Assembly: GCA_020054105.1 (NCBI GenBank)
Contig: JAGVLW010000053.1
Location: 4,698 to 68,697, forward strand
Direction of reading: 5' to 3'
DNA from: Alphaproteobacteria bacterium
GTDB taxonomy: Bacteria; Pseudomonadota; Alphaproteobacteria; Rickettsiales; SXRF01
DNA: 64,000 bases
The translations under genes and the position numbers were made by a program. The notes beneath the pieces were generated by a model. It saw only the letters and a list, made by a program, of their open reading frames with translations, had not been told where the DNA came from and searched no databases. Each line of letters begins with the position of its first letter. Position 1 is the stretch's first letter. This document shows, in pieces, positions 12,251-60,731 of this stretch.

Positions 12251-12309
12251 ACAGCACTTTCATGTTATTGCCTTGCCGTTATAGCGCAAACAAAAATCGC
12301 CGGCAGCAA

Positions 12310-12633: not shown

Positions 12634-12654
12634 AAAACTCTCACGGTTATATTA

Positions 12655-13062: not shown

Positions 13063-13074
13063 ACATTACTCTTT

Positions 13075-14584: not shown

Positions 14585-14602
14585 TTTTTTTCTAGGCAAG
14601 TC

Positions 14603-24761: not shown

Positions 24762-24779
24762 AATGATCCCCCCCCTATA

Positions 24780-24809
24780 TGTCAGATAATACCATAGTTT
24801 TATCTGACA
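24780..24809. promoter_or_regulatory. candidate AbiEi operator (10-bp perfect inverted repeat, 10-bp spacer)
   Basis: TGTCAGATAA-N10-TTATCTGACA, 19-48 bp upstream of the abiEi start. Confidence 0.4.
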
Positions 24810-24909
24810 AACAAGCCAGGTTATTCTGCACCAAGAATGCAAATTAACATATTGAATATTATTGTTATTAGTCTATGTGGTGTATCTTCCGCAATAAGAG
24901 GAGAGAAAC

Positions 24910-34653: not shown

Positions 34654-35409
34654 TTAATGCTCCGCCACGGCTCGTTTAATGCGTTCTACGTCTTCCGGCG
34701 TTGGTGATCGCATGATAAAGCGCAAGTCGATGCGGCGGTTCTGTGCAGCATCATTTTTCTTAACTATCGGTCTGCGTGCTTCGTAGCCGCTTACGGCCAG
34801 CACCGGAACATTTTGCATATTCAGTATATCATCATCCAGGACGGGCTGTGCCGCGGTCAACCCTCGAAACACGTTGATGGCGCGATTGGCGGAGAGTGTC
34901 CAGTTATCGAAGCCAGTTTCTGCCCCGGTGCGATCCGTATGGCCTTCGATCAATACCGTTTCCAGGGCTTCCTGGCTTTTAAGGCTGAGCTTTGCGCATG
35001 CTTCTTTTAATGTATCGTTCTTTACACGCGCCAGGCAGGGAAGATAGGTTCTCAATACTCCAGCCAACTTGATAAGTGCCTCATTGCCGTCTGCACTTAG
35101 CTCGTATCTTCCCCGGTCAAATAAAATTTTGTCCGGCAGGCGGAGAATGCCTTGTTCTTCATCCACCTCAACTTCTATGCCGAGTTCTTTGAGGCTTTTT
35201 TTAATTTCCTGCAGCACTATATTCCGGGATTCGATCATTGCGGTCACCTGTTCGGTGACATCCCTTGCTGTCTGCTCTGTATTGCGCATGTTACTGGCAA
35301 AGAGCATCAGCATAATAATAAAGATAAAAAGTATGCCTACGAGCAAATCCGTGAATGAAGCAAAATAGCTTTCATCATGGGTGTCGGTGGCTATGTCATG
35401 TGCGCTCAT
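34654..35409 (-). CDS. zorB: ZorB-like MotB/OmpA-family protein
   Basis: TM with a conserved Asp (FASFTDLLVGILFIFIIML) and a C-terminal OmpA-like peptidoglycan-binding motif IEGHTDRTG...NWTLSANRAINV...NRRIDLRF. Confidence 0.8.
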   Translation of the reverse strand: MSAHDIATDTHDESYFASFTDLLVGILFIFIIMLMLFASNMRNTEQTARDVTEQVTAMIESRNIVLQEIKKSLKELGIEVEVDEEQGILRLPDKILFDRGRYELSADGNEALIKLAGVLRTYLPCLARVKNDTLKEACAKLSLKSQEALETVLIEGHTDRTGAETGFDNWTLSANRAINVFRGLTAAQPVLDDDILNMQNVPVLAVSGYEARRPIVKKNDAAQNRRIDLRFIMRSPTPEDVERIKRAVAEH

Positions 35410-35419: not shown

Positions 35420-37384
35420 TCATGCCGTCGCGGTTTTAGGAAGCTGCTTGTTTTGTTCCTCGCGCTCTTCCGTCAATTCGTTAATCGCGCCACTTAATGT
35501 CTGAATCGCCTCATTGAACGAACTGTCGAAGGATGTGACAAATTCCTTGACCTTCTGCTGGAACTCATCGGTGCCTTTTGCCAAGGTTGAGAAGGCATTT
35601 CCTAGGTCTGTATCGACTTTCTCAAAGCGAGTCTGGTAGCTGCTCCAGCTTGTATCCATACGCGTCATTACCTGTTTCAACGACTCACTGGCGCCGGACA
35701 TTGAACTGAATGCTCCCATAATAATGTCCTGTGCTTTCTGAATGGTGCCTACCGCCTCCATCATCTGACGGGAAAGCTGCTCGACGGGAGTAGCGGCCTT
35801 GGCCAACGTGCCGGAAGCATTTACCAGTTCCTTTACGTTTCCCTGCATGCTGTCCGCCACTTGCTTGAATTCCAACATGTGCCCACCGATCTTGACATGC
35901 ACATCATCCAGCTTCTGGGAAGAGCGGGTAAAATCATCTGCCGCGCCTTTGATTAACTGGCCAGCATCGTTTAACTGACCGCTGGTAGCCAGGAGGCGTT
36001 CCAGTGCGCCAGCCATTTGCCCGACGACATCTTTCAATGGCTCCAGATTACCGGAAAGCCCTTGCACTGTTGCCGCTAGTTCGCCGTGCGTCTTGCTCAG
36101 ATTACCGGCACTTTCCTTATTGCCGTCTGCCGCGCCTTGAATCTGTCCCCCAGCATGCTTGATGCTCTCCGCAATAATTTTAAGCGATTCCAGCACTTCC
36201 GTGAATTGCATGAGTGCTTTTTGTACGCCGGAAAAATCCGTAACGAAACGATCCATGGTTTCCGCCATTTTCTGCGTGGCATTACCCATTTCCTGCCCGA
36301 AATTACCGCCGAAGCCCTCTATCTTTCCGACAAGCTGATCCAGGTTGCTCGTAAGCGCCTTGATATTGCTTACCATCTGGTTCATTCCCTCGCCGGTATG
36401 CTGATGCATATTGCGCAGGAATTCTTCGAGTACAGATTTCAGAGCACCCTCATTACTGGAGTGATCGCGCTCGGCAATTTTCTTCAGCGTATCCACCAGC
36501 GGCGCCATTGCCTCGGAAACGCTCTTAGGGAGAGCATGGTTCATGATGCTTTCAAATTTAAGAGTGATATTGTCCGCCAGATTAGCCAGGTGAAATTTCT
36601 GCTCTTCTTGCACTAACAAAGAAGAATGCAAAAGTTTTTCTGCAGGTACAAATTCTGTACGCATCTCGATACCAATACAGAAATCGTGTATTTGCTTTCT
36701 AAGATTATTGAATAAGCGCCGCTGTATGACGGATAACACCAGACTAAGCAAAATCGCAAAAACAGAGGTGATAAATTTGGTAGACGCCACTCTGAGGAGT
36801 TTTTGCAATCCTTCGGTACTGGCAGAAGCAGTTGCCAGATCATGCTGTGCGACGGCGATAGCGGCGGCTAGCCCCAGAAACGTAAAAAGCAAACCGAGGC
36901 CAATAAGATAATTAGGGAATGCATAGAGCTGGGATAGATTGCGTCGCGCTCCAAGCACCGATTCTAATGTAAAATATCGCTGCGGGCGCGCCGTAAGGTG
37001 AACGGCTTGACGCATAGGCTTCGATATTTCAGCCGCAACGTCCCGACGGGGCGGTGGCGGTATAATCAATGTTTCCTGATATTGCTGCCATAGCTCCCGC
37101 AGGCAGTCTATTTGCTGTAACTCTCTGACATGCTTGTCAAAATGATCGTAAAACTCCTTTTGCAATTCATCTATGTGCTGATCGAACTCCCCCTCATGCG
37201 GTCGGTTTCTACCTAATGCAACGACTTTAAGCGCCTCTCTAAAGGCATCACGGACTTGGCGGGTGCTGGTAAAAGTATCGACAAGGGCAAAAATAAATAC
37301 GCCGCTGATAATGGCGATGAACACCGCAGGCGTATAAGGATCTGCCAGGATATCCCACAGGGGTTGTAAAAATGCGTGTTCCAT
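35420..37384 (-). CDS. zorA: ZorA-like MotA/ExbB-family channel protein with a long helical tail
   Basis: ATG at 37384 (the track start at 37420 is TTG). N-terminal TM, cytoplasmic loop and a TM pair (YLIGLGLLFTFLGLAAAI and KFITSVFAILLSLVLSVI), then roughly 400 aa of helical low-complexity tail. Confidence 0.8.
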   Translation of the reverse strand: MEHAFLQPLWDILADPYTPAVFIAIISGVFIFALVDTFTSTRQVRDAFREALKVVALGRNRPHEGEFDQHIDELQKEFYDHFDKHVRELQQIDCLRELWQQYQETLIIPPPPRRDVAAEISKPMRQAVHLTARPQRYFTLESVLGARRNLSQLYAFPNYLIGLGLLFTFLGLAAAIAVAQHDLATASASTEGLQKLLRVASTKFITSVFAILLSLVLSVIQRRLFNNLRKQIHDFCIGIEMRTEFVPAEKLLHSSLLVQEEQKFHLANLADNITLKFESIMNHALPKSVSEAMAPLVDTLKKIAERDHSSNEGALKSVLEEFLRNMHQHTGEGMNQMVSNIKALTSNLDQLVGKIEGFGGNFGQEMGNATQKMAETMDRFVTDFSGVQKALMQFTEVLESLKIIAESIKHAGGQIQGAADGNKESAGNLSKTHGELAATVQGLSGNLEPLKDVVGQMAGALERLLATSGQLNDAGQLIKGAADDFTRSSQKLDDVHVKIGGHMLEFKQVADSMQGNVKELVNASGTLAKAATPVEQLSRQMMEAVGTIQKAQDIIMGAFSSMSGASESLKQVMTRMDTSWSSYQTRFEKVDTDLGNAFSTLAKGTDEFQQKVKEFVTSFDSSFNEAIQTLSGAINELTEEREEQNKQLPKTATA

Positions 37385-37597
37385 GAAGATTCCCCACAAC
37401 TTATTATATTTGATGACCAATCATCATAAATCATGAGAAACTACTTGATATGCTTCCGAAAAGAAACGGTTTTCTAGTCTAAAGAATGTCTCTCCCGCAG
37501 AGGCATAACAGCATTGCGCATAAAACAAATCAATTCTGGTATAAGCTCATAAGTCTCAGTATGATGTCGTCCATTCAGGAAATGATGACGGACGCCT

Positions 37598-38542: not shown

Positions 38543-38755
38543 ATGACACATTCAGAACACCCGGCCGGTGACCGGCTGCTAACGCGGAAGGAAGCGGCCG
38601 ATTATCTCGGCGTCGCGGAAAACACCCTGTCGGTATGGGCGAGCGAGGGGCGCTACAGGCTTCCCTATATCAAGGTCGGGCGGCTGGTGAAATACCGCCT
38701 GTCCGATCTGAACGAATTCCTCGCGCGCAATACGCAGGGCGGCGCGCATGAATAA
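38543..38755 (+). CDS. AlpA/MerR-like excisionase-family HTH protein
   Basis: ATG at 38543 with a GGAGG RBS. LLTRKEAADYLGVAENTLSVWASEGRYRLPYIKVGRLVKYRLSDLNEFL is the typical excisionase HTH_17 pattern. Confidence 0.75.
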   Translation: MTHSEHPAGDRLLTRKEAADYLGVAENTLSVWASEGRYRLPYIKVGRLVKYRLSDLNEFLARNTQGGAHE

Positions 38756-41141
38756 CATTTCCTCCTTCTCCAGCCTGCGCGAACTTGGCTTCAGTGTTTT
38801 CCCGCTCCAGGCGCGGAGCAAGAAACCTGTCGGCAGTTGGAAGGAGTATCAGACCACATCAGCTAATGCCGGGGAATGCGCCGCATGGGAAACGGCCTAT
38901 CGCTACAACCCCTACAATATCGGCATTGCCACCGGCAGCGTGTCCGGCTGCTTCGTGCTGGATGTGGACGGCGAGCAAGGACGTGAGACGTTGGCGAAGC
39001 TGATCGCAGAGCATGGTGAGTTGCCTGCCACGCCCACCGTTAAAACCGGTAAGGGACAGCATTATTATTTCCGCTATCCGGCGGGATATACAGTGCGCAA
39101 CCTTGCAGGGCGGAGTGTGCATGGCGAGATTCTTCCCGGCATCGACCATCGTGGCGACGGCGGATATGTGGTGGCGCCGCCCTCGATCCATCCCGACGGC
39201 ATGGCGTATGAATGGATCGTCAGCCCGTGGCAGACGACGCTGGCGGATGCACCGGCATGGCTGCTGGAACTGGTGGCCGTGCCGGAGAATAATGAGACAC
39301 TGGATTTCAACGGCGCGGCTGACAATATTCCCGCCGGGGCTTATCTCGAAAAAGCCCTCGCCAACGAACTGACACTACTGACACAAGCTCCGGCCGGGCA
39401 GCGCAATGACCGGCTGAACCGGGCGTCATTCAGCCTCGGCCAGCTTATTGCGGCGGGGCTGGACGAGGACATGGTAAGGCGTGAATTGCATGCAGCCGCG
39501 CGCATGGCCGGGTTGGAAGACGTGGAGATAACACCCACCATCGACAGCGGTATCGCCGCCGGGAAGCAGAAGCCGCGCGACATTCCTGCTAATGCCGATT
39601 CCGCTAATTCTGCTAACGCCAATGCGAACAGGATTAGCGGAATTAGCAATGCCAGCATTAGCGAGTGGCAGACACCCACTCCGTTGACACAGGAAATTGC
39701 GGCGCAGGAACCGTACCCGGTGGAAGCGTTGCCGGATGTTATCCGCGAGGCGGTGGCCAGCTATCAGGCTTACGGCCAGCAGCCGGTGCCCATCGTCGCC
39801 ATCGCCGGGTTGGCGAATGTCAGCCTGGCCTGTCAGGGATTGGCCGATATTGCCCGCGACGAAGTGCTGACCGGCCCCATCTCGCTCAACTTCATTGTCA
39901 CCGCCGACAGCGGCGAGCGCAAAACCTCGGCGGATAAAGTCTTTTCCAAAGCGGCGCGCGAATGGGAAAAAGCAAAGCGCGCAGCTATGCAGGCGGAATT
40001 AAAACAGGCGAAAATTCTGGTCGACGCCTATCTCGCCACCCGCGCGGGCATTACGCAGCAGATCACCAGCGCCAGCAAGAACGGCGGCACGGCGGATCAG
40101 CTGGGCGCGCTCCAAGCGGCATTGCAGCAGATTGATACGGAAGCGCCGCAACTACCCGTCATCCCCACGCTGCTGTTCGAGGACGTGACGCAGGAGGCCT
40201 TGATCGACGAACTGGCCAGGGGGCATCCATCGGCGGCGCTGTACAGTGACGAGGCGGCAATTGTTATCGGTTCACATGGATTTCACCAGGAGCGTTGCCT
40301 GCGCTATTTCGGTCTGATCAACCGTTTGTGGGACGGCAACGGTTACAAACGCCAGCGCATTACCAGCGAGAGCACCAGTTTCTACGGCAGGCGCATGACC
40401 TGCTCGCTGATGATGCAGCTTTCGGTGTTGAAGACACTCATAAGCGTGGCCGATGGGCAGAGCCGCAATACCGGATTTCTCGCCCGCGTGCTGATTGCCT
40501 GCCCGGATAGCACGATGGGCACGCGGTTCTACAAGGAACCGCAGTCACTCGACCGGGCACTGGACGCATTCCACGCGCGCATTCATGCGTTGCTGGAAAT
40601 GCCGTTGCCGGTGGACAAGGAAACGGGCGAACTCACGCCGCCATTGCTAGGCTTAAGCAATGAAGCGCACCAGATGTGGGTGGAGTATTATAACGAGACG
40701 GAATTAGCCATCGGTGCACGGGGAGAATTTTATTCTGTCCGCGATTTTGCCGCTAAGTCCGCCGAGAATGCGGCCAGGCTTGCCTGCAACTTTCATATCT
40801 TCCAGCAGGGCGCGACCGGCGAGGTGGACAGCGACGCCATGCAGCGCGCCATCACCATCATGCAATGGCACCTGCGCGAAACGCTGCGCGTATTCAGCCA
40901 CATCGATACGCCGGAGGAAATGACGCATGCCCGGCTGCTGCTGGAATGGCTGAAGCGGAAGAATCACCGCACCATCACCGCCAGCGAGATCGCCACGCAC
41001 GGCCCTAACCAGCTGCGCCAGCGCGAAGCGCGTCATGCCGCGCTCAAAACCCTCTGCGAGCACGGTTACCTGCGTGAGCGCGCCGTCGGCCGCAACCGGC
41101 AATACGAGGTCAATCCCTCCCTGGCGGAGGTAACGCCATGA
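38748..41141 (+). CDS. bifunctional primase-polymerase (PrimPol N-domain) fused to a DUF3987/YfjI-like helicase-type domain
   Basis: The N-terminus FPLQARSKKPVGSWKEYQ...CFVLDVDGEQG...KTGKGQHYYFRYP...GIDHRGDGGYVVAPPSIHPDGMAYEW is Prim-Pol-like. The C-terminal half (LLFEDVTQEALIDELARGHPSAALYSDEAA...RLWDG) is DUF3987-like. Confidence 0.85.
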   Translation: MNNISSFSSLRELGFSVFPLQARSKKPVGSWKEYQTTSANAGECAAWETAYRYNPYNIGIATGSVSGCFVLDVDGEQGRETLAKLIAEHGELPATPTVKTGKGQHYYFRYPAGYTVRNLAGRSVHGEILPGIDHRGDGGYVVAPPSIHPDGMAYEWIVSPWQTTLADAPAWLLELVAVPENNETLDFNGAADNIPAGAYLEKALANELTLLTQAPAGQRNDRLNRASFSLGQLIAAGLDEDMVRRELHAAARMAGLEDVEITPTIDSGIAAGKQKPRDIPANADSANSANANANRISGISNASISEWQTPTPLTQEIAAQEPYPVEALPDVIREAVASYQAYGQQPVPIVAIAGLANVSLACQGLADIARDEVLTGPISLNFIVTADSGERKTSADKVFSKAAREWEKAKRAAMQAELKQAKILVDAYLATRAGITQQITSASKNGGTADQLGALQAALQQIDTEAPQLPVIPTLLFEDVTQEALIDELARGHPSAALYSDEAAIVIGSHGFHQERCLRYFGLINRLWDGNGYKRQRITSESTSFYGRRMTCSLMMQLSVLKTLISVADGQSRNTGFLARVLIACPDSTMGTRFYKEPQSLDRALDAFHARIHALLEMPLPVDKETGELTPPLLGLSNEAHQMWVEYYNETELAIGARGEFYSVRDFAAKSAENAARLACNFHIFQQGATGEVDSDAMQRAITIMQWHLRETLRVFSHIDTPEEMTHARLLLEWLKRKNHRTITASEIATHGPNQLRQREARHAALKTLCEHGYLRERAVGRNRQYEVNPSLAEVTP
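39587..39663. repeat. GCTAAT-rich inverted-repeat module, copy 1 (inside the PrimPol linker)
   Basis: CCGCTAATTCTGCT (39601-14) and ATTAGCGGAATTAGCAAT (39633-50), flanked by further GCTAAT/ATTAGC units. Confidence 0.55.
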
Positions 41142-41638
41142 CCGCCGCTGCTGCTAATCCCGCTAATTCTGCTTATCCACGCCGGTTAGCTGCATTAGCG
41201 GAATTAGCAATCATCCCCCACCATCACTTCAGGAGACCACCCATGACCCACCGCAAAGCTCTTACCGAATCCGCCAGGAAAGACTGGATGTATTTTCCCT
41301 ACGACGAGCGCTCGGCGCTTTCCCTGTTCAACCATGATGCCTGCGAAGGTGTGGAACTGATCCATGTGCTCATGGCGCAATATCAGGCACAGGCGGAAAC
41401 GCTAGCCGGGATCGTGCATACGCTGCGGTTGTTCGCCCACAACTACCGGCGCTCGTATCACCGCCTGGCCGCAAAAGGATTGCTCATCCGTATCGACGAC
41501 CATTACCGGAAGCAGGCGGAAGCCGTCATCGAAAAAACGGAACGCCTGGTCGAAAGCTGCGCCCTGCCGATGCCGGAGGGCGGCTACCTGGTCTGCGACG
41601 GGGTGTTTCCCGGCCGGGACAGGGATTGCGACGAATAG
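41138..41638 (+). CDS. hypothetical island protein
   Basis: 166 aa. The first ~35 codons are the repeat module, so the internal start MTHRKALTE (41240) is at least as likely. Confidence 0.4.
   Translation: MTAAAANPANSAYPRRLAALAELAIIPHHHFRRPPMTHRKALTESARKDWMYFPYDERSALSLFNHDACEGVELIHVLMAQYQAQAETLAGIVHTLRLFAHNYRRSYHRLAAKGLLIRIDDHYRKQAEAVIEKTERLVESCALPMPEGGYLVCDGVFPGRDRDCDE
41153..41211. repeat. GCTAAT-rich inverted-repeat module, copy 2 (just after the PrimPol stop)
   Basis: CCGCTAATTCTGCT (41160-73) and ATTAGCGGAATTAGCAAT (41194-211), both identical to the copy 1 cores. Confidence 0.55.
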
Positions 41639-41662
41639 CCACCAGCCATCGAGGCCACCATC

Positions 41663-41866
41663 ATGCCGGTAGATCAAGACATACTCGAACGTAAGGCCGA
41701 CGAGCTGACACAGACCGAGCTTTTCGAGCGAATTGTCTACAAAATCCGCCGCAAATACGACTTTCAAATCAGCGAGATGGAGGCCATTGCGGCTGCACGG
41801 AACCTTATCGGATTTACCCAAACACTGCTTGAACTCTCCAAACATAGCGGTAATGTCGAGCCATGA
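41663..41866 (+). CDS. hypothetical small protein
   Basis: 67 aa. Overlaps the recombinase start by 4 nt. Confidence 0.4.
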   Translation: MPVDQDILERKADELTQTELFERIVYKIRRKYDFQISEMEAIAAARNLIGFTQTLLELSKHSGNVEP

Positions 41867-43437
41867 GCCGGAAAATCGTCCGATTTGAAGAATATAAGCC
41901 CGCTGGCCTGAAAAAGGCCATCATCCTGGCGCGCGTCTCCACCAAAGACCAGGAAGAGGGCTATTCCATAGCTGCGCAGAAACACCGGCTGCAGCAATAT
42001 TGCGAGCGCAAGGGATTGGAGATCATTCGCACTTTCGAGCTGGTGGAATCCTCTACCCACGGTGACCGCAAGGATTTCGCGCAGATGATCGACTTCATCC
42101 GCAAGCAGCGCGAGTGTGTGGCGTTAGTAGCGGATAAAGTGGACAGGGTTCAGCGCAGCTTCAAGGAATTCCCGATGCTCGATGCGCTGATCCAGGAAGG
42201 CAAGCTGGAGCTGCATTTCAATACCGAAAATTACATCATCCACCGCGAATCCGTTTCGCAGGAACGGCTGATGTGGAGCATTGGCGTGGTGATGGCGCAG
42301 TCCTACGTCGATTCCCTGCGCGATAACGTCAAGCGCAGCTTTGACCAGAAGATACGCACCGGCGAATGGATCGCCACCGCGCCGGTCGGCTATATGAATG
42401 CCAAGGATAGCCGTGGCCGTGGCACGGTAGTGGTGGACGAAGCGCGGGCGCTGCTGGTGCGGCGGCTGTTCGAAGAATATGCCACCGGCAGCTATACGCA
42501 AGGCCAGATGGTAAAAGAGGCTCGGCAATGGGGATTGCGCAATGCCCGCGGCAAGCAGGAGCCGCTGGTGCGGTCACAGATAAACCGGGTACTGCAAAAT
42601 CCGTTTTACTACGGCGAGATGGAAGTGAAGGGTAAGCGCTATCCGCACGTCTATACGCCGCTGATTACCAAAGACCTGTACGATAGATGCCAGGCGGTGC
42701 GGCTGGGCTGGCATAAGAAGCCATTCGCCTATGCCGGGAAGGATTACATCTTCCGTGGGCTGATTACCTGCGACACTACCGGCAAGACGGTTACGGCCGA
42801 TACAAAAACCAAGCGTTACCAGAACGGCAATACCGCCGAATATACCTACCTGATGTGCTGGAACCCCGAAGACCCGGACAAACGCATGTGGGTGCGGGAA
42901 GATACCGTCCTGGCCGAGGTGGAGCAGGTATTCAAGAACATGGGCATTGATGACGATATTTACGAGGACGTGGTCGCCTATGCCCGCAACACCTGCGATA
43001 CCGAAAAGGCTTTCCATAAGCGCCAGATGCAGGAAACCACCCGCGAAATCGAGGCCATCCAGGGCAAGCTCAATAAGCTGATGGACTTGCTGCTGGAGGG
43101 CGCTATCGAAAAGGCCGAGCATGATGAGAAACGCGCCGCCCTGCGGAGCAGGCAGGTTGATCTGACCAACCTGATTAACAGTTACCACGGCGCCGATGAC
43201 GGCTTCCGCGACGCCGTGGTGGATATGCTGGAACTCAGCAAAAAAGCCCATGAATTGTTCGTAAGTTCGAACAACCAAGGCAAAAGGCGGCTTATCAATT
43301 TCGTGTTTTCGAACCTGTCCCTGAAAGGCGAAAAGCTGGCATTCCGCCTGAGACAGCCCTTTGACCAGTTTGTCAATGCGGTCAAAATTGAAGAATGGCG
43401 TGCCCGGCAGGAATCGAACCTGCGACCCACAGCTTAG
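41863..43437 (+). CDS. large serine recombinase (integrase)
   Basis: Resolvase-type N-terminus KKAIILARVSTKDQEEGYSIAAQ, a recombinase domain, a Cys-containing segment (LITCDTTGK...YLMC) and a coiled-coil C-terminus. The last 14 codons overlap tRNA-Arg. Confidence 0.9.
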   Translation: MSRKIVRFEEYKPAGLKKAIILARVSTKDQEEGYSIAAQKHRLQQYCERKGLEIIRTFELVESSTHGDRKDFAQMIDFIRKQRECVALVADKVDRVQRSFKEFPMLDALIQEGKLELHFNTENYIIHRESVSQERLMWSIGVVMAQSYVDSLRDNVKRSFDQKIRTGEWIATAPVGYMNAKDSRGRGTVVVDEARALLVRRLFEEYATGSYTQGQMVKEARQWGLRNARGKQEPLVRSQINRVLQNPFYYGEMEVKGKRYPHVYTPLITKDLYDRCQAVRLGWHKKPFAYAGKDYIFRGLITCDTTGKTVTADTKTKRYQNGNTAEYTYLMCWNPEDPDKRMWVREDTVLAEVEQVFKNMGIDDDIYEDVVAYARNTCDTEKAFHKRQMQETTREIEAIQGKLNKLMDLLLEGAIEKAEHDEKRAALRSRQVDLTNLINSYHGADDGFRDAVVDMLELSKKAHELFVSSNNQGKRRLINFVFSNLSLKGEKLAFRLRQPFDQFVNAVKIEEWRARQESNLRPTA

Positions 43438-43471
43438 AAGGCTGTTGCTCTATCCCCTGAGCTACGGGCAC
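43396..43471 (-). tRNA. tRNA-Arg (anticodon UCU)
   Basis: Reverse complement is GTGCCCGTAGCTCAGGGGATAGAGCAACAGCCTTCTAAGCTGTGGGTCGCAGGTTCGATTCCTGCCGGGCACGCCA. It folds as a cloverleaf with a 7-bp acceptor stem, a CUUCUAA anticodon loop, a GGTTCGATTCC T-arm and an encoded CCA. Confidence 0.93.
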
Positions 43472-43576
43472 GTTACGCCTAGTTACGCGAGGCGGGCCGG
43501 GGATTCAAGGGAAAAGCAATAAAGGCTTGCAAAACAAAACGCTTTGCTGGTATTTATTCCACCCTTCAAGGGATTG

Positions 43577-43653
43577 GGGCGGTTAGCTCAGTTGGTTAGA
43601 GCGCCACGTTGACATCGTGGAGGTCGGAGGTTCGAGTCCTCTACCGCCCACCA
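43577..43653 (+). tRNA. tRNA-Val (anticodon GAC)
   Basis: GGGCGGTTAGCTCAGTTGGTTAGAGCGCCACGTTGACATCGTGGAGGTCGGAGGTTCGAGTCCTCTACCGCCCACCA. It has a UUGACAU anticodon loop and an encoded CCA. Confidence 0.93.
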
Positions 43654-44161: not shown

Positions 44162-45229
44162 CTAATGCGTAGACAAATCGGCAGAAATATCGCTTTTTTG
44201 CCGTCTCCATGCGACTTTTTCGGGTTCTTCTAAGGCTTTATTTCTGCACTCTTTCGCAGAAATAATTTTGGGAATCAATGATTCTCTAATCCGTGATTCT
44301 TTTGGTGTCGCACCGTTCGCTGTCCTTGTAAGGAAATCTAATTCTTGCTTATCAAGGAGATTGCATTTGGGACGGACATAGAGATCATCAATTTCGCGTT
44401 CATACGCCGCTTTTCGTATATCGGCGAGTGCTTTATCTGTACATTCGCGCTCAGCGTCATGTTTGGCAAATAACTTTTCTCGAATTGCTCGCCCTTCTGG
44501 CGTCTTATCGTTTGTCGTTTCAAGAATGCGGATTTCGTGGGTGGAAAGGACAGAACATTTCGCTAATACTATTTCTTCAATGGACGGGACAATGGCATCA
44601 AGATGATATTGAAGGCCATCTGAAATGGTAACCGTATAAGAGTCTTGAGAATTATTAGACATCATTTTGTCAATAAAAAATTGGTTGATCTCCATGTCTT
44701 GTAAGTATTTGCGAACGTCATCCATTGCCTTTTTTTCACTAGCCTCATGCTCAATATCAGATAATCTTTCTGCATCTATTTTAGAAATATATGGTCGGTG
44801 TAAACTGAGGTAATAACCCTGATGCTCGATTCCTCCCGCATACACTAAGAAACATGCGCTAGCGCAGACATTATTTTCTTTATCAACCACATAATCAGGA
44901 TCGAGGTCTTTACCATCAAAAATATTTGGTGTGCTTGTCCCCAACCGTAGCCGGCGGATCATAGCTCCCATCTTCATTGCCTCATCCACATCGCCACCCT
45001 TTGATCTTAGATCAACGTAACGAATAGCCGGGCCGTAAATAAAATAATAATCTAACAGTTTAGTATGCAGTTTTTCGGTATCACCAGGAACGATGTCACC
45101 TTCCACCTTTAATGTCCAAAGAGGCCCACGAGCATTACGCGCCCGCTCTACGGTAGCAGCGTTTGCATTTCCAAACTCGATGCCGACAATCAGCAAAGTA
45201 ATTAGAAGGGCAATTATACTTTTCCTCAT
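44162..45229 (-). CDS. secreted hypothetical protein with a ClpP/crotonase-fold-like N-domain (COG3904-like)
   Basis: ATG at 45229 gives the signal peptide MRKSIIALLITLLIVGIEFGNANA. SKGGDVDEAMKMGAMIRRL...CASACFLVYAGG recalls periplasmic Clp-fold proteins. Confidence 0.5.
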   Translation of the reverse strand: MRKSIIALLITLLIVGIEFGNANAATVERARNARGPLWTLKVEGDIVPGDTEKLHTKLLDYYFIYGPAIRYVDLRSKGGDVDEAMKMGAMIRRLRLGTSTPNIFDGKDLDPDYVVDKENNVCASACFLVYAGGIEHQGYYLSLHRPYISKIDAERLSDIEHEASEKKAMDDVRKYLQDMEINQFFIDKMMSNNSQDSYTVTISDGLQYHLDAIVPSIEEIVLAKCSVLSTHEIRILETTNDKTPEGRAIREKLFAKHDAERECTDKALADIRKAAYEREIDDLYVRPKCNLLDKQELDFLTRTANGATPKESRIRESLIPKIISAKECRNKALEEPEKVAWRRQKSDISADLSTH

Positions 45230-45422
45230 ATGTCCCGCCAAAACGATATTCGAATTATTACATTACTGACTAATATCACTATACTGCCAGTTTTCCATAT
45301 AATATTGGTGATTCTTCAAAGACTTTACTTAGCCATTGCATTCCCTCCCTCAACCGATAAAACTGGTTCGAGGTTAATCGCCTAGGGACCACCATCCATT
45401 TTATGCGGTACTTGTCCGATTT

Positions 45423-45655: not shown

Positions 45656-47734
45656 ATGAAAATGCGGACGAGATCCGGCGGGTTTACCATATTAGAACTT
45701 TCCGTGGTTCTGCTTATCATCGCCCTGATTACTTCTATGGGTGTGTATGCAGGGCTGGGCGCGCTCGAATCGGCCAGGCGCGCCAGCACGGAAAACAAGC
45801 TCACCGAAATCGAAAAAGCCCTGATGGCGTTTCGCACGCGCTATAACCGGCTGCCATGCCCGACCGCTATCTCCATCACATCAAGTACCAACGCCAGCTA
45901 TGGGCTGGAGTCATTCGTAAATACGACGGTTTGCGGTGGGACCAGGGTCGGCGATTATGCGGTGCGCGGCTTCGTGCCGACGCGTGCGCTGGGGCTTCCC
46001 GACGAATTTATGTATGACGGCTGGGGGACGAAGTTCGCCTATACCGTCGATCGCAACGCGGCGGCAACGGATGCGTTTAAATATATCCGCCCGTACGAAT
46101 CGTGCGGCGTCGGTGTGCTCGACGCTAATCTTAGGACGCGTTCGGGGCTTAATGCCAATACCAGCAGCATCGTCAATGCCAGTACGAATTCCGCAACTCC
46201 GGCGGTCCCGGTGCGCGATACGCAAGGGGCGATCTATGCGTTGCTCAGCTACGGATCGACCGGGCATGGCGGTTATCAGTTCGACAGCACGGCTACCGTC
46301 GATGCCGATCTGACCGCAACGGCAGTGACGCTGGCGACAACCGGATCGAACTCCAACCGTTTTTACGTTCAGGCCGATGTCACCGATACTGCGGACCTGA
46401 GCGTCTTTTACGATTATATCGTACGTTTTAAAAAACGCTCCGACCTGATGACGCCAGACGACCTGATCAATTTTAAAAACTATAATGGACCGCAACTGGC
46501 AACGATCGATCAGGACGGATCGCCGGACAGCGTAAAACTCTATCGCAATCATTGCGGCTATTGGCGCAGGGTGATTCCCATCGGCACTTATACGCCCGCA
46601 TTCAGCAACACCAACACCAACCTGACTGCACAGTTCACGCCCAAGAACGACTTGTTCATTTACCCTTATAGCTCGGGAAATCTGTGCCGTGTGCTTACCT
46701 ATAATTCCACCGGCGCCAGCGCCACCACGGCGGTAAATAGCGGTAGCGGCGAACAGATTACTTACGACAACCTGCTTACTATCGCTGGTTATCCATCTGC
46801 TGGCACTTGCGCTACATGCGTATGCAATGCCAACGTTGCCAGCGCGAAATTTGTCATGGCGCCCGGCAACGGCATGATGGGAGTTATTAAAGCCAACGAT
46901 CCCTTTATTGAGCTGTGGAATTACTTGCCTGCCACGCATAATTATAAATACGGCAACTCACCGCTTGGCAATTTTATTGTTCCTATTAGCTCGAAGCTTA
47001 CGCTTGCGCCGACGGCGATGGCCCTGAGTAAAAATGCCGATTACATGATTCTATTTCGCTCCGGCTCTTATATAAATTTTTATCGCAAAATTAGCGATGA
47101 TCCCATTCAATATACCCCCATTACAGCGCCGACAGGTTTGTCTTCGGCGGCGAATATCAGAGCCTTTGCATTTTCCCCGGATGATCGCTTCCTGGTGGTC
47201 GCGAGCGATAATAGCGGCTTCGATTATGATATCTGGTATATTAATTCAGCGGATAATAGCTTTACGCTGCTTACCGGTTTGGTGCCCGTGGGCGATGCGA
47301 CGGGAGTACCGAGTGCTGTAGCGTTTTCTCCCGATGGGAAATATGCGGCAATCACTACAAGCGATTCTACGACGACATTTAGCGAGAATATCTATTTAGT
47401 GGAGCCTACCTACTCGGCGACGGCCAATACAATGTATTTTACTAACCAGCAATTATTCGTTGCGGGATATACAAATAGCGCGACTGTCAGCGATTATACA
47501 TTGAATGGCGGCAGCAGTGCTCCGACAGCCGCACTATTCTCGCCTGATTCCAGCACGCTGATATTGCCGATAGGCGGTGGCGGTGATACCGATTGGCCGC
47601 TGAGCATTTTCCGGTACGCGGGCGCCAGCCAGTTCCAGCCGACCTATGTTAATGAAATGAGCGCGCTTTACGGCATGGTCGGTGGCGTGGCGACCAGCGG
47701 TGCTTCAGTATATTCCGCAGCGGTTTCTAAGTAG
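45656..47734 (+). CDS. large prepilin-type protein with C-terminal PD40/WD40-like beta-propeller repeats
   Basis: ATG at 45656 gives MKMRTRSGG|FTILELSVVLLIIALITS, a class III signal with Glu+5. The C-terminal third has three FSPD motifs (AFSPDDRFLVVAS, AFSPDGKYAAITT, LFSPDSSTLILP). Confidence 0.7.
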   Translation: MKMRTRSGGFTILELSVVLLIIALITSMGVYAGLGALESARRASTENKLTEIEKALMAFRTRYNRLPCPTAISITSSTNASYGLESFVNTTVCGGTRVGDYAVRGFVPTRALGLPDEFMYDGWGTKFAYTVDRNAAATDAFKYIRPYESCGVGVLDANLRTRSGLNANTSSIVNASTNSATPAVPVRDTQGAIYALLSYGSTGHGGYQFDSTATVDADLTATAVTLATTGSNSNRFYVQADVTDTADLSVFYDYIVRFKKRSDLMTPDDLINFKNYNGPQLATIDQDGSPDSVKLYRNHCGYWRRVIPIGTYTPAFSNTNTNLTAQFTPKNDLFIYPYSSGNLCRVLTYNSTGASATTAVNSGSGEQITYDNLLTIAGYPSAGTCATCVCNANVASAKFVMAPGNGMMGVIKANDPFIELWNYLPATHNYKYGNSPLGNFIVPISSKLTLAPTAMALSKNADYMILFRSGSYINFYRKISDDPIQYTPITAPTGLSSAANIRAFAFSPDDRFLVVASDNSGFDYDIWYINSADNSFTLLTGLVPVGDATGVPSAVAFSPDGKYAAITTSDSTTTFSENIYLVEPTYSATANTMYFTNQQLFVAGYTNSATVSDYTLNGGSSAPTAALFSPDSSTLILPIGGGGDTDWPLSIFRYAGASQFQPTYVNEMSALYGMVGGVATSGASVYSAAVSK

Positions 47735-48689
47735 CCGTCGCGCGCAGCGGTCGGTCGCCGGTAACTTCCGGCGGTAGCTTGAAACGGGTATTTTCCGTGA
47801 CGGTTTGCAATTGCTCGGTGCGCGTCGGCCGCAACAGGCCGATCGCATGCACCACGCCCTGCACCAGATGTTCCGGCGCCGACGCGCCGGCGGTGATGCC
47901 CACCGACGCGATGCTGTCGAACCATTCGGGCCGCAGGCCGTCGGCATTGTCGATCAGGTAGGCGGTGACGCCGATTTCCTGGGCCAGGTCGCGCAGGCGG
48001 TTGGAATTCGAGCTGTTGGTAGAGCCGATGACCAACACTAGCTCTACATGTTTTGCCAGGTCACGCACGGCGTTCTGGCGGTTTTGCGTGGCGTAACAGA
48101 TGTCGCGCAATTCGGGGCCGACGATGGCGGGAAAGCGCGATTTCAGTGCGGCGATAATGTCTTTCGTGTCATCGACACTTAGCGTGGTTTGCGTCACATA
48201 GGCCAGTTGTTCGGGGTTTTCGACTGCGAGCTTTGCCACATCTTCCAGATTCTGCACCAAGAGCACGCCTTGCTTGACGCGGCCGCTGGTGCCTTCCACT
48301 TCCGGATGGCCTTCGTGACCGATCAGGACGATTTGCTTCCCTTCTTTTTCATAACGCTGCGCCTCGCGGTGTACTTTTGTCACGAGCGGGCAGGTGGCGT
48401 CGATTACCGGCAAGTCGCGCAGCCGCGCGGAATTCTCGATCTTCTCCGATATGCCGTGCGCGGAAAAAACGGTGATGGCGCCGTCGGGTATTTCATCCAC
48501 CTCGTTGACGAAGATCACGCCCTTGGCTTTCAGATCGCCCACCACCCATTTATTATGGACGATTTCATGGCGGACATAGACCGGCGCGCCGTACAGCGTC
48601 AGCGCCCGCTCGACGATCTCGATGGCGCGGTCGACGCCGGCGCAGAAGCCGCGCGGCTCGGCAAGCACGATGCGTAGTGGATTATTCAT
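47727..48689 (-). CDS. ispH: 4-hydroxy-3-methylbut-2-enyl diphosphate reductase
   Basis: LAEPRGFCAGVDRAIEIVERAL, VRHEIVHN and DATCPLVTKVH, containing the three conserved Cys residues. Confidence 0.95.
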   Translation of the reverse strand: MNNPLRIVLAEPRGFCAGVDRAIEIVERALTLYGAPVYVRHEIVHNKWVVGDLKAKGVIFVNEVDEIPDGAITVFSAHGISEKIENSARLRDLPVIDATCPLVTKVHREAQRYEKEGKQIVLIGHEGHPEVEGTSGRVKQGVLLVQNLEDVAKLAVENPEQLAYVTQTTLSVDDTKDIIAALKSRFPAIVGPELRDICYATQNRQNAVRDLAKHVELVLVIGSTNSSNSNRLRDLAQEIGVTAYLIDNADGLRPEWFDSIASVGITAGASAPEHLVQGVVHAIGLLRPTRTEQLQTVTENTRFKLPPEVTGDRPLRATAT

Positions 48690-55193: not shown

Positions 55194-56072
55194 ATGTTAA
55201 CAGAGCGTATGAAACAGCAAATACAGACTATTTCCCCGCCGGACGACGACGAATTAAAGCGCATTATTCACACCGCGCTGGCGGAAGATGTGGGGAACGG
55301 GGATATTACTTCGCAACTGCTTGTACCCGCCGATTTGCAGGCGCGGATGCATTTTATCGCTAAACAAGAGTTGGTCGTATGCGGCGGGTTTATCCCCCAG
55401 GCGGTATTTGCGGCGATGGGGCAGGCGGTGGCAGTTGAGGTGAGAATGCCGGAGGCAAGCCGCACCCGGCCCGGCGACGTTATCGCGATTGCCAATGGCC
55501 CTGCGCGCGCGCTGCTTGGCGCCGAACGCGTAACGCTCAATTTGATGCAGCGCATGAGCGGCGTAGCGACGCTTACGCATCGCTTTGTCGAAGCCGTGGC
55601 AGGCACGAAAGCCAAAATTCTCGATACGCGCAAAACCATGCCGGGATTGCGGGCTTTGGATAAATACGCCGTACGCGTAGGCGGCGGGCAGAACCACCGG
55701 ATGCGCCTCGATGACATGGTGCTGATTAAAGATAACCACATTGCCTTGTGCGGGGGCATTGCGATGGCGGTGGAAAAAGCGCGCAAAGGCTCCGGGCTGC
55801 AAGTGGTCGTGGAATGCGATACGCTGGAACAGGTCGTGCAGGCGCTGGCCGCTAAGCCGGATCGGATATTGCTCGACAACATGACAATCGCGCAATTGCA
55901 GTCGGCGGTGAAGTTGAACGATGGGAAGATTCCGCTGGAAGCGTCAGGCGGCGTGTCGTTTGAGACGATTCGCGCGATTGCCGAAACGGGAGTGGATTAC
56001 ATCTCGGTGGGAAGCATTACGCATTCCGCGCCGGCCGCGGATATAAGCGGCGACATCAAAACCCGGTCTTGA
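55194..56072 (+). CDS. nadC: nicotinate-nucleotide pyrophosphorylase (carboxylating)
   Basis: ALAEDVGNGDITS, ERVTLNLMQRMSGVAT, ILDTRKTMPGLR and LDNM...EASGG motifs. I prefer the ATG at 55194 (GGAAAGG RBS). Confidence 0.92.
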   Translation: MLTERMKQQIQTISPPDDDELKRIIHTALAEDVGNGDITSQLLVPADLQARMHFIAKQELVVCGGFIPQAVFAAMGQAVAVEVRMPEASRTRPGDVIAIANGPARALLGAERVTLNLMQRMSGVATLTHRFVEAVAGTKAKILDTRKTMPGLRALDKYAVRVGGGQNHRMRLDDMVLIKDNHIALCGGIAMAVEKARKGSGLQVVVECDTLEQVVQALAAKPDRILLDNMTIAQLQSAVKLNDGKIPLEASGGVSFETIRAIAETGVDYISVGSITHSAPAADISGDIKTRS

Positions 56073-56820
56073 AAACCAAAGCGCATTTAAACCCGGCCGC
56101 CGACAGCGTCGCATATTGGCTGCTAATCACGCAGGTTGCGTCGTTTTGCGCAACGACGCGGCCGGCTATGGGAGAACCGTCATCGAGTTTCTGGTCGATT
56201 TGCAAAGCTTCCGTTGGCGTCAGGACGCCATTTTGTTTATTGGAGTTACTTGCAGTGCCAACGCCGCCAAACCACAATACATGCTTAAACGGCGTATCGT
56301 TGGTGGTGGCGAAAGCGTCCGTGGCCGCTGCGGCTTGCGTCACATAAGCAATCGCCCAGCCCGCACCCGATAATTTGGATTCGGGGAGGTTCACGCCGGG
56401 CCGGCGTGTATAAGTAGCGGTTTTCAACCCATTGACGACGACGGCCAGCAGCTTGGCATTGACCAGGTGCTGCCAGGCGCGAAACTGCTCGAAATCGTTG
56501 GTTGCCGTGACGGGGTCGATCAGGCCATTGGCATCGCCGTCACAAGTAGCTTCCGGGGTTGATCCTGTTGTCGAGGCGCAGGCACCGCTAACGACGTCCC
56601 ATAGCACCGTCGCGCCATTGAAGTCGCCGGGCAGCGCCAGGTATTTATCGCGAAAGCCGCTTGCGGCCTGGTTATATTGCTGCTGTTCCGTGGCGATGGC
56701 GTGCAGCTCGGAATTGCGAATCAACCCATCTCCAAGCAGAATCCCGCCGATGATCAGGGCGATAATGGTCATGACTATCGAAAGCTCGAGCAACGTGAAA
56801 CCGCGTTTTTTACGAATCAT
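56056..56820 (-). CDS. prepilin-type N-terminal cleavage/methylation protein, paralogue 1
   Basis: MIRKKRG|FTLLELSIVMTIIALIIGG. Shares the family motifs FRDKYLALPGDF, CDGDANGLID, IDQKLDDGSP and a C-terminal aromatic GF. Confidence 0.75.
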   Translation of the reverse strand: MIRKKRGFTLLELSIVMTIIALIIGGILLGDGLIRNSELHAIATEQQQYNQAASGFRDKYLALPGDFNGATVLWDVVSGACASTTGSTPEATCDGDANGLIDPVTATNDFEQFRAWQHLVNAKLLAVVVNGLKTATYTRRPGVNLPESKLSGAGWAIAYVTQAAAATDAFATTNDTPFKHVLWFGGVGTASNSNKQNGVLTPTEALQIDQKLDDGSPIAGRVVAQNDATCVISSQYATLSAAGFKCALVFKTGF

Positions 56821-56821
56821 C

Positions 56822-57637
56822 TTAGAACCCCGGTATAAAAAATGGCGCGCAAGCCGTCAACGACGTTGTGGTGTTATTATAGACGGCGGTCGTTTGCGAG
56901 CTATCGGTCATGGTGCAATTCGCATAGACAGCCGTTCTTCTGGAGCGCATTTTTCCCGTTCCCGGCATGCCGTCGTCGATTTTGGCGTCGGTGGTTTGCG
57001 TGTCGTTAGGCGTTAGAATGGCGGCGGAGGTATAGCTATTTGTGCTGTTACCGCCGAAAGTCATGATATGCCCGTAATTATCGCCCCATAAATTCACATC
57101 GGTGGCAATTTGCAAATAGTAGAGAACCGTCCAGCCGCCCGGCGATAATTTCGATGCGGGCACGTTGCTGCCGACTACGGCGTCGCTGGTGCCGCCGGCC
57201 CCATAGGTTCCGGTATAGCGGCCATTTGCGAAGCCGGCGAATGTCAGGTGCTGCCACACCAAAAACCATTCCGAAGCTGCCGACAAAACGCCGGCGGTAG
57301 TGCTGGCGCCGATCCTGCCGTTGCCGTCGCCATTGCAGGTGGCCGTGGTTGAACCGACGCTGTCGGCATAAGGGCAGGTTGCAGCTCCCCAATTGGCTTC
57401 AGCGGAAGAGTAGTCGCCCGGCAGTGCCTGATATTTATCCTGAAATTCCCTTATAGCCTTTACCTGACTGTCATATTCACTGATCATGGCGCGAATTTCT
57501 GAATCGCGTATCAAGTTTTTGCCTATCAATATGCCGCCGACGATGAGCGCAATAATGCCAAGCACGATGGACATTTCCAATAGCGTAAAGCCATGACGCA
57601 TAATTTTCTTCGAGTGGGCTGTTATATGCATGATCAC
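56822..57637 (-). CDS. prepilin-type protein, paralogue 2
   Basis: ...MRHG|FTLLEMSIVLGIIALIVGG, then FQDKYQALPGDY, CNGDGNGRIG and DAKIDDGMPGTG. The start is ambiguous (GTG 57637, ATG 57631 or ATG 57601). Confidence 0.75.
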   Translation of the reverse strand: MIMHITAHSKKIMRHGFTLLEMSIVLGIIALIVGGILIGKNLIRDSEIRAMISEYDSQVKAIREFQDKYQALPGDYSSAEANWGAATCPYADSVGSTTATCNGDGNGRIGASTTAGVLSAASEWFLVWQHLTFAGFANGRYTGTYGAGGTSDAVVGSNVPASKLSPGGWTVLYYLQIATDVNLWGDNYGHIMTFGGNSTNSYTSAAILTPNDTQTTDAKIDDGMPGTGKMRSRRTAVYANCTMTDSSQTTAVYNNTTTSLTACAPFFIPGF

Positions 57638-58441
57638 TTAAAAAAATCCGGTGAGATAATATTGAAAACATACGCGGTCGCTGCGGCTGGTATCGTAAGT
57701 GGCGGTAAGAGCGTCATCCGTAGTTGGGCAAAGGCGTGCGACCTGCCCACCGTTTACGTTGATGATGGGGGTAATCAATATGCCTGTCCCCGGCAAGGCA
57801 TCGTCGATTTTTTGATCGATGGACAGCGCATCGGTAGGCGTGAATATGGGGGCAGTGGCGGCAGTAGCTCTGGTAACGGCTCCCCCTAAGGTTATGAGCA
57901 CGCCGTTTTTACTGGCGAAATAATTGGCGCTGGCCGCGGCGGGCGGTGCAGAATAGATGCTGTATATTCCGCCGACGCGCCTGTTGGTGGCGCGGCCGAA
58001 GGATCCGGTATCATAGGTCATACCCATAATGGTTCCCCCCTCGATAAGCCCGGCATTCATAAGATGTTTGAAAACGAGGTGGGACTCCGCGAAATTACTC
58101 AGCACAGAAATGAAATCGTCGGCAGGGGCATTGATGATTTTACCGTTGCCATTACCGTTACAAGTATTAGTAGTGGGGGTATAGTTAACATCGTCAAATG
58201 TACAATCCAGATAGGTACCCCAGACGGTCGTCGCGGTGGGAAAATCACCGGGATAATATTTGTATTTGTCGCGAAATATTTTGATGGCGTTCTGATAGCG
58301 GGTGTAATCGGTGACTACCGATTGCAGCTCCGCCGAATGCAGCACCGATTTTCCAACGAAAATCGCCCCGATGATCAGCGCAATAATCACCAGGACGAAG
58401 GACATTTCTATCAGTGTGAAGCCGGATTTCTTGTGTGACAT
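57638..58441 (-). CDS. prepilin-type protein, paralogue 3
   Basis: MSHKKSG|FTLIEMSFVLVIIALIIGA, then FRDKYKYYPGDF, CNGNGNGKII and DQKIDDALPGTG. Confidence 0.75.
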   Translation of the reverse strand: MSHKKSGFTLIEMSFVLVIIALIIGAIFVGKSVLHSAELQSVVTDYTRYQNAIKIFRDKYKYYPGDFPTATTVWGTYLDCTFDDVNYTPTTNTCNGNGNGKIINAPADDFISVLSNFAESHLVFKHLMNAGLIEGGTIMGMTYDTGSFGRATNRRVGGIYSIYSAPPAAASANYFASKNGVLITLGGAVTRATAATAPIFTPTDALSIDQKIDDALPGTGILITPIINVNGGQVARLCPTTDDALTATYDTSRSDRVCFQYYLTGFF

Positions 58442-60209: not shown

Positions 60210-60311
60210 AATTTTATCTATTTATCAATATTATACCATTATAGTACACCATAATTAACAGATGATTAATGCGTCTGTGGTAGTATGTAAAATATACGGT
60301 TGGAGGATTGC

Positions 60312-60731
60312 ATGGTTTCACCGGTCAATATCGCTGTTTCTGGATTGGTTGCTGCTAGCACGCGCTTGGCGGTAAGCGCGAACAATATCGCTAACCAAGC
60401 GAGTACGCAGGCGCGCGTCGATGGAAAGGTGGTCGATAGGCCATTCGTACCGCAAGTGGTCGACCAGGTTTCGCTGTCGACCGGCGGCGTGCAGGCAATC
60501 GTTCGCGATGCTAAGTCGTCAGATGTCAAGCCCGATGCCAAACCGGATGATGAGGTGGATGATAAACCGCCGCTACAGGTGCAGCCTGAAGGTTTCGCGG
60601 AGGCACGCAATGTAGACGTCGCTAAGGAATTGATCGCGCAGAAAATCGCCGCGTACGATTATGAAGCCAATTTGAAAACCCTCAAAATCAATGACAGGCT
60701 GCAAAAAAGCCTTCTGGATATTCTTGCATAA
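60312..60731 (+). CDS. FlgB/FlgC-like flagellar rod-family paralogue
   Basis: ATG at 60312 after a GGAGG RBS. N-terminal rod motif AVSGLVAASTRLAVSANNIANQAST, C-terminus VDVAKELIAQKIAAYDYEANLKTLK, and an acidic Pro/Lys-rich middle. Confidence 0.6.
   Translation: MVSPVNIAVSGLVAASTRLAVSANNIANQASTQARVDGKVVDRPFVPQVVDQVSLSTGGVQAIVRDAKSSDVKPDAKPDDEVDDKPPLQVQPEGFAEARNVDVAKELIAQKIAAYDYEANLKTLKINDRLQKSLLDILA

Follow-up and report, generated by a model that had tools for sequence, protein, structure and literature searches.

A prepilin-type protein with a seven-bladed WD40-like propeller, a probable modular minor type IV pilin in an alphaproteobacterium

Introduction

Can a type IV pilin carry a beta-propeller within its own polypeptide chain, and what would such a protein do? 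The question is raised by a gene for a 692-residue protein found in a stretch of 64,000 nucleotides (the window) of an alphaproteobacterium assigned to the Rickettsiales (assembly GCA_020054105.1, contig JAGVLW010000053.1, positions 4,698 to 68,697 of the forward strand). The first-pass annotation of the window read the product as a prepilin fused to TolB-type propeller repeats, displayed on a pilus or pseudopilus, and knew of no described family with this architecture. It has in fact been described: the definition of modular pilins goes back to Raynaud et al. 2021 (PMC8179133), where a catalogue of 264 architectures includes N_methyl-PD40 (IPR012902-IPR011659, Dataset S1), and an automatic label for the protein exists in IMG. 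Examples of modular pilins are PilB (pilin plus vWA) and PilC (pilin plus lectin) of Streptococcus sanguinis (PMC8179133).

We describe the protein as a prepilin-type module followed by a seven-bladed propeller and propose, with moderate confidence, that it is a modular minor type IV pilin showing a ligand-binding propeller at the filament tip, a PilY1-like role reached by direct fusion. Modular pilins as a kind are already known, and their N_methyl-propeller form is both catalogued and automatically annotated. What is new is the size of the family, its pilin head for which no model exists, the systematic swapping of propeller classes, and a housekeeping synteny accompanied by a steep conservation gradient.

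Gene and domain organization

The open reading frame (ORF) is intact and its product has four parts: a class III signal, a 52-residue alpha-1 helix, a head of about 200 residues and a C-terminal propeller (Table 1). An alternative in-frame start, TTG at 45548, would yield a 728-residue version, which is the IMG call; the ATG at 45656 was favoured because the homologues start at the MK...GFT position of the window protein. NCBI and IMG contain an identical protein, labelled in IMG as 'pseudopilin PulG/WD40 repeat protein'. All the motif strings quoted at first pass were found in the protein.

An AlphaFold2 model built on a 70-sequence family alignment (predicted local distance difference test, pLDDT, 79.2; predicted template modelling score, pTM, 0.83) comprised a helix at residues 12-63, an alpha/beta head that reaches approximately residue 270 and, within residues 281-690, strands arranged in seven groups. 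The borders of the modules were set from this layout: pilin module (N-module), 1-270; linker, about 271-280; propeller, 281-690. A pilin module, a short linker and an extra non-pilus domain are the elements by which PMC8179133 defines a modular pilin, and the protein has all of them.

Table 1 Coordinates of the modular pilin gene, its parts and other features in the window
Feature	Position	Strand	Basis or remark
Modular pilin ORF, 692 residues, complete	45656..47734	+	ORF list; ATG 45656, stop 47734
Class III signal leader MKMRTRSGG, residues 1-9	45656..45682	+	Sequence; basic, ends in Gly-1
Predicted mature N-terminus and alpha-1 helix, residues 10-63, Phe+1, Glu+5 (E14)	45683..45844	+	AlphaFold2, alignment, profile
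Enlarged globular pilin head, residues 64-270	45845..46465	+	Family alignments
T-A-T-A-V in place of N-C-H-C, residues ~220-225	46313-46330		
Seven-bladed WD40-like beta-propeller, residues 281-690	46496..47725	+	DSSP, Foldseek, profile, Pfam
Degenerate motifs of blades 2-4	46631..47056	+	Sequence and AlphaFold2
Blade 5 motif AFSPDDRFLVVAS, residues 505-517	47168..47206	+	Sequence
Blade 6 motif AFSPDGKYAAITT, residues 556-568	47321..47359	+	Sequence
Blade 7 motif LFSPDSSTLILP, residues 627-638	47534..47569	+	Sequence
ispH (LytB)	47727..48689	-	Pfam LYTB 1.4e-97; synteny anchor, not part of the pilin protein
Flagellar export and rod genes (flhB, fliR, fliP, flgB/C-like rod protein)	10130-15618 and 60300-60731		
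AbiEii toxin and AbiEi/DUF6088 antitoxin pair	23072-24842	-	Type IV toxin-antitoxin / abortive infection
Zorya type I anti-phage system	29879-37420	-	
ZorD-like SNF2 helicase with C-terminal Mrr nuclease domain	29879-33214		8qy7, E=3e-78
ZorC (EH_Signature), two ORFs	33676-34650 and 33217-33582		Frameshift possibly responsible
ZorB-like OmpA protein	34654-35409		
ZorA-like protein	35420-37420		PDB ZorA 8qyy, E=4e-9
Mobile-element module	38748-43653		
PrimPol-DUF3987 primase-helicase	38748-41141		
Large serine recombinase	41863-43437		3' end overlaps tRNA-Arg(tct)
tRNA-Arg(tct)	43396-43471		
tRNA-Val(gac)	43577-43653		Past tRNA-Arg(tct)
359-residue protein	44162-45241	-	Hydrophobic signal-peptide-like N-terminus; no Pfam match
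Four prepilin-like genes, 254-305 residues, three in tandem	56056-58441 and 61843-62760	-	GFTLLE signal

The pilin module

The signal region (MKMRTRSGGFTILELSVVLLIIALITS, residues 1-27) reads MKMRTRSGG followed by FTILELSVVLLIIALITSMGV, with the predicted cut-site context MKMRTRSGG/FTILE. It presents the features expected of a prepilin signal: a short basic leader, Gly-1, a hydrophobic residue at +1, Glu+5 and about 20 hydrophobic residues. Across the family alignment Glu+5 (E14) was invariant (70/70) and, among the 65 members with a residue at the respective position, Gly-1 occurred in 58, with Ala in the remaining 7, and Phe+1 in 63. The canonical class III signal with Glu+5 reported at first pass is complete in the sequence and shared by the family. 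A PilD cleavage site is predicted between Gly9 and Phe10, and residues 10-63 are predicted to form the membrane anchor and the filament-core assembly interface. In the model the alpha-1 helix (pLDDT above 90) is extended and followed by the beta-sheet of the head, which is the architecture of pilins, and the family profile of the N-module matched the alpha-1 helices of geopilin, TcpA, PilE1 and GspG (E 4e-8 to 6e-6).

The head is unusually large for a pilin, and no Pfam or NCBIfam model spans its roughly 200 residues. The family motifs in it are NRLPCP (residues 64-69, contained in FRTRYNRLPCPT, residues 59-70), LGLPDEFMYDGWG (112-124), YALLSYGSTGHGG (194-206) and YDYIVRFKKR (252-261), and conserved cysteines are found at positions 68, 93 and 150. 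NRLPCP, DGWG, S-x-G-x-x-G and the three cysteines were invariant or nearly so in the 70 sequences. When the N-module was modelled alone (pLDDT 77) and searched against the PDB with Foldseek, eight chains were retrieved, seven of them pilins or pseudopilins and all of them weak; the type IVb pilin CofA (9iuf_A) was the best match (E=0.065), and GspG (3g20, a local match), PilA1 and Myxococcus xanthus PilA were also found. These matches are specific but weak.

The C-terminal propeller

DSSP assignment on the model gave seven groups, each of three or four strands. The order of the strands, rather than the coordinates, suggests that the last one (685-690) may pair with blade 1 and so complete the ring. 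The best Foldseek matches in the PDB were seven-bladed WD40 propellers, namely the designed protein WRAP-T (7bid, TMt 0.65), mLST8 and G-beta, and 6-phosphogluconolactonase was also among the seven-bladed matches. The family profile compared with solved structures retrieved the Nostoc WD40 protein 2ymu (E=8e-73). Model, fold search and profile thus agree with the C-terminal beta-propeller claimed at first pass, and the check by structure prediction and Foldseek that had been suggested for it returned a propeller.

The type of propeller had to be revised. The TolB-type assignment failed the hidden Markov model (HMM) check, in which Pfam PD40 (PF07676) scored 19.0 bits with a cut-off of 20.9, and the top folds were seven-bladed WD40 propellers; PD40 was matched by only 4 of 64 relatives. 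Pfam WD40 (PF00400) marginally passed with the single sequence (27.6 bits, cut-off 27), and the best-scoring stretch for both models was residues 497-527. Because PF07676 stays below its cut-off, the propeller is classed as WD40-like: it is real, has seven blades and is not of the TolB type. Three FSPD motifs had been reported after more than 400 residues beyond the head motif. They are present, the first of them 435 residues past NRLPCP, and they mark blades 5 to 7; the ring is larger than these three motifs, with weaker copies marking blades 2 to 4 (QFTPKNDLFIYP, 326-337; MAPGNGMMGVI, 401-411; ALSKNADYMILF, 456-467). In blade 6, S558 and D560 were nearly invariant across the family.

Size and modularity of the family

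A word-index search had found 12 relatives and given the impression of a tiny family. This was overturned when HMMER was run exhaustively with a profile of 8 sequences: counting as members the representatives of clusters at 50% identity with E<=1e-30, that search yielded 4,584 clusters. The full-length pilin-propeller architecture, with 570-760 residues, was present in more than half of the best 150 representatives. Scanning one genome per species, we found 62 loci, most of them in uncultured 'Rickettsiales' or Alphaproteobacteria metagenome-assembled genomes (MAGs) and others in Holosporaceae 'Namur', Candidatus Mesenet and Planctomycetes such as Pirellulales, Gemmataceae and Isosphaeraceae. 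Our search of the literature on pilin-propeller fusions and on Holosporales pilins found no description of the present family.

The pilin module of about 260 residues also occurs standalone (236-334 residues), often as two or three tandem genes, and in other members it is fused to WD40-like, FG-GAP or NHL/SGL propellers or to LamG. Among 64 diverse members the modules were FG-GAP (29), WD40-type (about 16), NHL (9), SGL (6) and LamG/DUF2341 (2). Such swapping fits the 'carrier plus effector module' logic published for modular pilins.

Giant relatives were also seen (P0024, P0047, P0057, P0113 and P0135), with 2,248-4,705 residues and 8-24 profile matches that fell largely in the propeller region. 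At least P0024 and P0057 start with the pilin module, and these proteins are possible multi-propeller giant pilins.

Genomic position and divergence

The gene and ispH converge, with an overlap of 8 nt between their 3' ends. The same arrangement, with the pilin gene convergent to ispH-zapE, was found in at least 13 distinct MAGs, where the conserved block usually continues downstream with panC, a phosphoribosyltransferase gene, infC and thrS; in several of them an ogt or ABC-F gene lies upstream. The syntenic neighbours were 56-90% identical to those of the window, and the pilin-propeller proteins 22-40% overall. Within the protein, mean identity to the window sequence fell from 52% in alpha-1 through 38% in the head to 21.5% in the propeller. 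The window gene is therefore a core gene of long standing, passed on vertically, with a fast-diverging outer module. The gradient fits a conserved assembly interface joined to a rapidly diversifying exposed module.

Standalone copies of the pilin module also hold a fixed position. At five loci (L026, L037, L038, L043 and L044) a module of about 260 residues directly follows an lpdA-like dihydrolipoamide dehydrogenase gene and precedes COQ9, near position 10000 in L026, L037 and L038 and at 1775-2572 in L043/L044; pdhA-pdhB-pdhC precede the lpdA-like gene in the three longer loci. The MAGs of L026, L037, L043 and L044 also carry the syntenic pilin-propeller orthologue. Because this paralogue, located after the pdh operon in MAGs with the syntenic orthologue, is likewise away from filament machinery, the pilin genes of the lineage are scattered.

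A fixed housekeeping position in every syntenic MAG, with pilus genes not nearby, and the placement of the standalone paralogue after the pdh operon would suit a protein that is no filament subunit. Its N-terminus would then serve as an inner-membrane anchor or export signal for a periplasmic housekeeping propeller, for example a TolB-like scaffold or a lactonase-like enzyme; the profile indeed also matched the 6-phosphogluconolactonase-type propellers 6igb, 4qrj and 1ri6. We regard this as quite unlikely. The invariant Glu+5 and the conserved Gly-1/Phe+1 serve processing and filament assembly, not a plain anchor, and family members are operonic with PilD or adjoin secretins (see below). The identity of the propeller (21%) against that of the neighbours (56-90%) is unlike a housekeeping enzyme, and the PD40 score lies under the cut-off.

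Filament machinery in the relatives

Type IV pilus or type II secretion system (T2SS) genes are reported to be widespread in basal Rickettsiales (PMC10847448). PilD-type peptidase genes (A24_N_bact plus Peptidase_A24) immediately adjoin family genes at six loci (L039, L040, L046, L047, L057 and L067). In L067 the 3' end of pilD overlaps the start of a same-strand gene coding for an N-module with an NHL propeller. Secretin genes were found at L046 and L047, and a secretin fragment at L039. With its class III signal, long alpha-1 helix and pilin-like head, and with relatives linked to PilD and secretins, the window protein is of the prepilin type, as the first-pass annotation had it. The link with filament machinery is visible only in the relatives, not at the window gene.

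A second kind of peptidase, CpaA/TadV-like, of about 165 residues and with the Peptidase_A24 domain only, was observed at L010 (17120-17611), L021 (17391-17897) and L050 (17331-17828). Its gene follows shortly after fliP, at a distance of about 5 kb downstream from the pilin-propeller orthologue, and has no counterpart in the window.

The minimal clusters of the relatives (secretin, PilD, pilins) are compatible with a T2SS as well as with type IV pili, and the literature pools the two systems of Rickettsiales in one category (PMC10847448). The protein could accordingly be a pseudopilin of a T2SS-like or periplasmic 'endopilus', a PilD-processed cap like GspK whose propeller binds or pushes substrates or scaffolds enzymes. 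The name PulG given by IMG points in this direction, as does the best NCBIfam match, which was GspG (N-terminus only, E=1e-5); all 25 N-modules tested matched TIGR01710. Homology to GspG/PulG covers the class III signal, the alpha-1 helix and the beginning of the alpha-beta loop: hhalign of the N-module profile with PulG (sequence verified against 5wda) gave 97.4% probability over profile columns 8-79 only, reaching into the GspG-typical 'YxxDNxRYP' segment. Membership in TIGR01710 fails, however, with a score of 25.4 and an equivalog cut-off of 88.85. This match covers residues 9-67 only and the similarity ends at about residue 77, so a GspG-type head was rejected; the window head is twice the size of the GspG head and cannot be aligned with it, and GspG has no C-terminal module. 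Genes for GspC/E/F/L/M were not seen at any locus examined, and a propeller that diverges very fast and is swapped among three classes is more suggestive of a binding module exposed to the outside. We therefore hold a pseudopilin to be unlikely.

Proposed function

As a modular minor type IV pilin, the protein would be inserted into the inner membrane by its hydrophobic alpha-1N segment, and a PilD-type prepilin peptidase would cleave it after Gly9 and N-methylate Phe10. The alpha-1 helix with Glu+5 would then dock the subunit into the filament core, as in other pilins. A rigidly attached propeller of about 45 kDa would be too bulky for the filament body, and the protein would therefore be a low-abundance pilin located at the pilus tip or priming it. 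The propeller at the tip would act as a ligand-binding platform, that is, as an adhesin or receptor binder. A binding module displayed on a pilus, which had been suggested at first pass, is also the most economical reading of the present data.

An orthologous-looking copy at one conserved position per syntenic MAG, together with the giant relatives that may carry several propellers, could instead suggest a filament of unusual thickness in which this protein is the major structural subunit and every subunit bears a propeller. This we find most improbable. A propeller of about 45 kDa per subunit is hard to fit to the known packing of type IV filaments and to secretin diameters. Moreover, the same MAGs carry standalone N-module paralogues of about 260 residues, more plausible as a major pilin, and the window holds four other prepilin-like genes of ordinary size.

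These four genes (Table 1) encode proteins with a GFTLLE signal and the shared motifs C-x-GDGNG and K-I/L-DDG-x-P-x-x-G. They belong to a different paralogous family, matching the modular pilin profile over alpha-1 only, and are candidates for partner or major pilins.

Several observations weigh against a tip-borne modular pilin. The window gene stands among housekeeping genes (ispH, zapE, panC), outside any pilus operon. The cognate prepilin peptidase and secretion machinery that the first-pass annotation proposed to locate were not found near it: Pfam on the ~50 main ORFs, tblastn and a motif scan detected no gene in the window for a prepilin peptidase, a secretin, an assembly ATPase or a platform protein. 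In particular, tblastn with the relatives' PilD, CpaA-like peptidase and secretin gave no match there, and the PilB/GspE-type Walker A pattern G.TGSGK[ST][TS] was absent from ORFs of at least 80 residues in the window and 66 loci. Passage of the propeller through a secretin would have its precedent in PilY1 by analogy only. The head resembles solved pilin folds only weakly (best E=0.065), and the window protein is without the NCHC motif carried by at least 90% of its relatives. Finally, the full protein scored 17.0 bits with the N_methyl model PF07963 (cut-off 21.2) and 16.0 with TIGR02532, just under the cut-off of 16.3. The PF07963 check suggested at first pass came out divided, as N_methyl was matched at E<1e-3 by 46 of the 64 relatives; TIGR02532 reached 17.3 on a 290-residue N-module fragment. 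Pfam scores of the single sequence are marginal, and the family-level evidence is decisive.

At the place of the NCHC motif (two Cys and one His), the window protein has T-A-T-A-V, and the model is disordered around it (pLDDT below 50 for residues 208-232).

Relation to known systems

The window protein resembles PilB and PilC of S. sanguinis in having an N-terminal class III pilin module, a short linker and a bulky effector, with a predicted position at the tip and a predicted role in adhesion. It differs from them in the effector, a seven-bladed WD40-like propeller instead of vWA or lectin; in its large pilin module (about 260 residues) with a head lacking any Pfam or NCBIfam model; in its host, a diderm alphaproteobacterium; and in its location outside any pilus operon.

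A beta-propeller presented at the tip for adhesion or surface sensing, as predicted here, is likewise found in PilY1/PilC of type IVa pili, and in both cases the carrier stays constant while the modules joined to it vary in many combinations (PMC8179133). PilY1, in contrast, is not a pilin and joins the tip via a minor-pilin complex, whereas the propeller of the window protein is covalently fused to the pilin. Homology to PilY1 was rejected: PF05567/IPR008707 had no match at E<=10 in the window protein, and no PilY1 structure was among the top 50 Foldseek matches of its model. The resemblance is an analogy, limited to the proposed function.

CofB of the type IVb pili of enterotoxigenic Escherichia coli and GspK of the T2SS are likewise minor pilins of large size that have additional domains and serve to cap or prime filaments. 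The extra part is a beta-repeat/beta-sandwich in CofB and an inserted alpha-domain in GspK, as opposed to a propeller in the window protein, and no sequence similarity to either was detected.

If the modular pilin interpretation is right, the family represents a large unstudied branch of modular pilins in which one carrier was repeatedly joined to three propeller classes, and the window protein would be a genetically simple, one-gene counterpart of the minor-pilin/PilY1 tip complex. It would also be a candidate attachment factor in mostly uncultured Rickettsiales-like bacteria, whose first contact with the host is poorly understood. A bolder reading, which we judge doubtful, is that of a pilin for recognizing hosts or prey, inherited vertically throughout the lineage of Rickettsiales-like alphaproteobacteria and occurring also in Planctomycetes. 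Here a conserved, hitherto undescribed carrier of about 260 residues with swappable propellers (WD40, FG-GAP, NHL) would do the job of PilY1, and the fast-evolving propeller face would set the eukaryotic host or surface to which the cell attaches; such a protein would be a specificity determinant for the transition from extracellular to host-associated life that is discussed for early Rickettsiales. As to annotation, 'PulG/WD40 repeat protein' can be corrected to 'modular type IV pilin', and the head could become a new model of the Pfam/NCBIfam type.

Neighbouring elements in the window

In the window, the stretch from the ABC-F gene to the pilin gene holds insertions: the AbiE pair, the Zorya type I system, a PrimPol-DUF3987 gene and a serine recombinase next to tRNA-Arg and tRNA-Val, and the low-GC gene of a 359-residue protein (Table 1). 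All of these were absent from the relatives checked, and for this reason the pilin gene is not regarded as cargo of the island. A mobile or defence-island origin was also rejected on synteny, since ispH-zapE-panC is kept in MAGs without the island. The window gene is thus part of the core genome, separate from the adjacent defence island.

The 359-residue protein gene lies immediately upstream of the pilin gene and is divergent from it. It lies in the stretch of lowest GC content in the window (about 45% vs 54-59%) and was probably acquired horizontally.

The flhB, fliR, fliP and flgB/C-like genes in the window show the organism to be flagellated; this flagellar cluster is syntenic with that of L065/L066.

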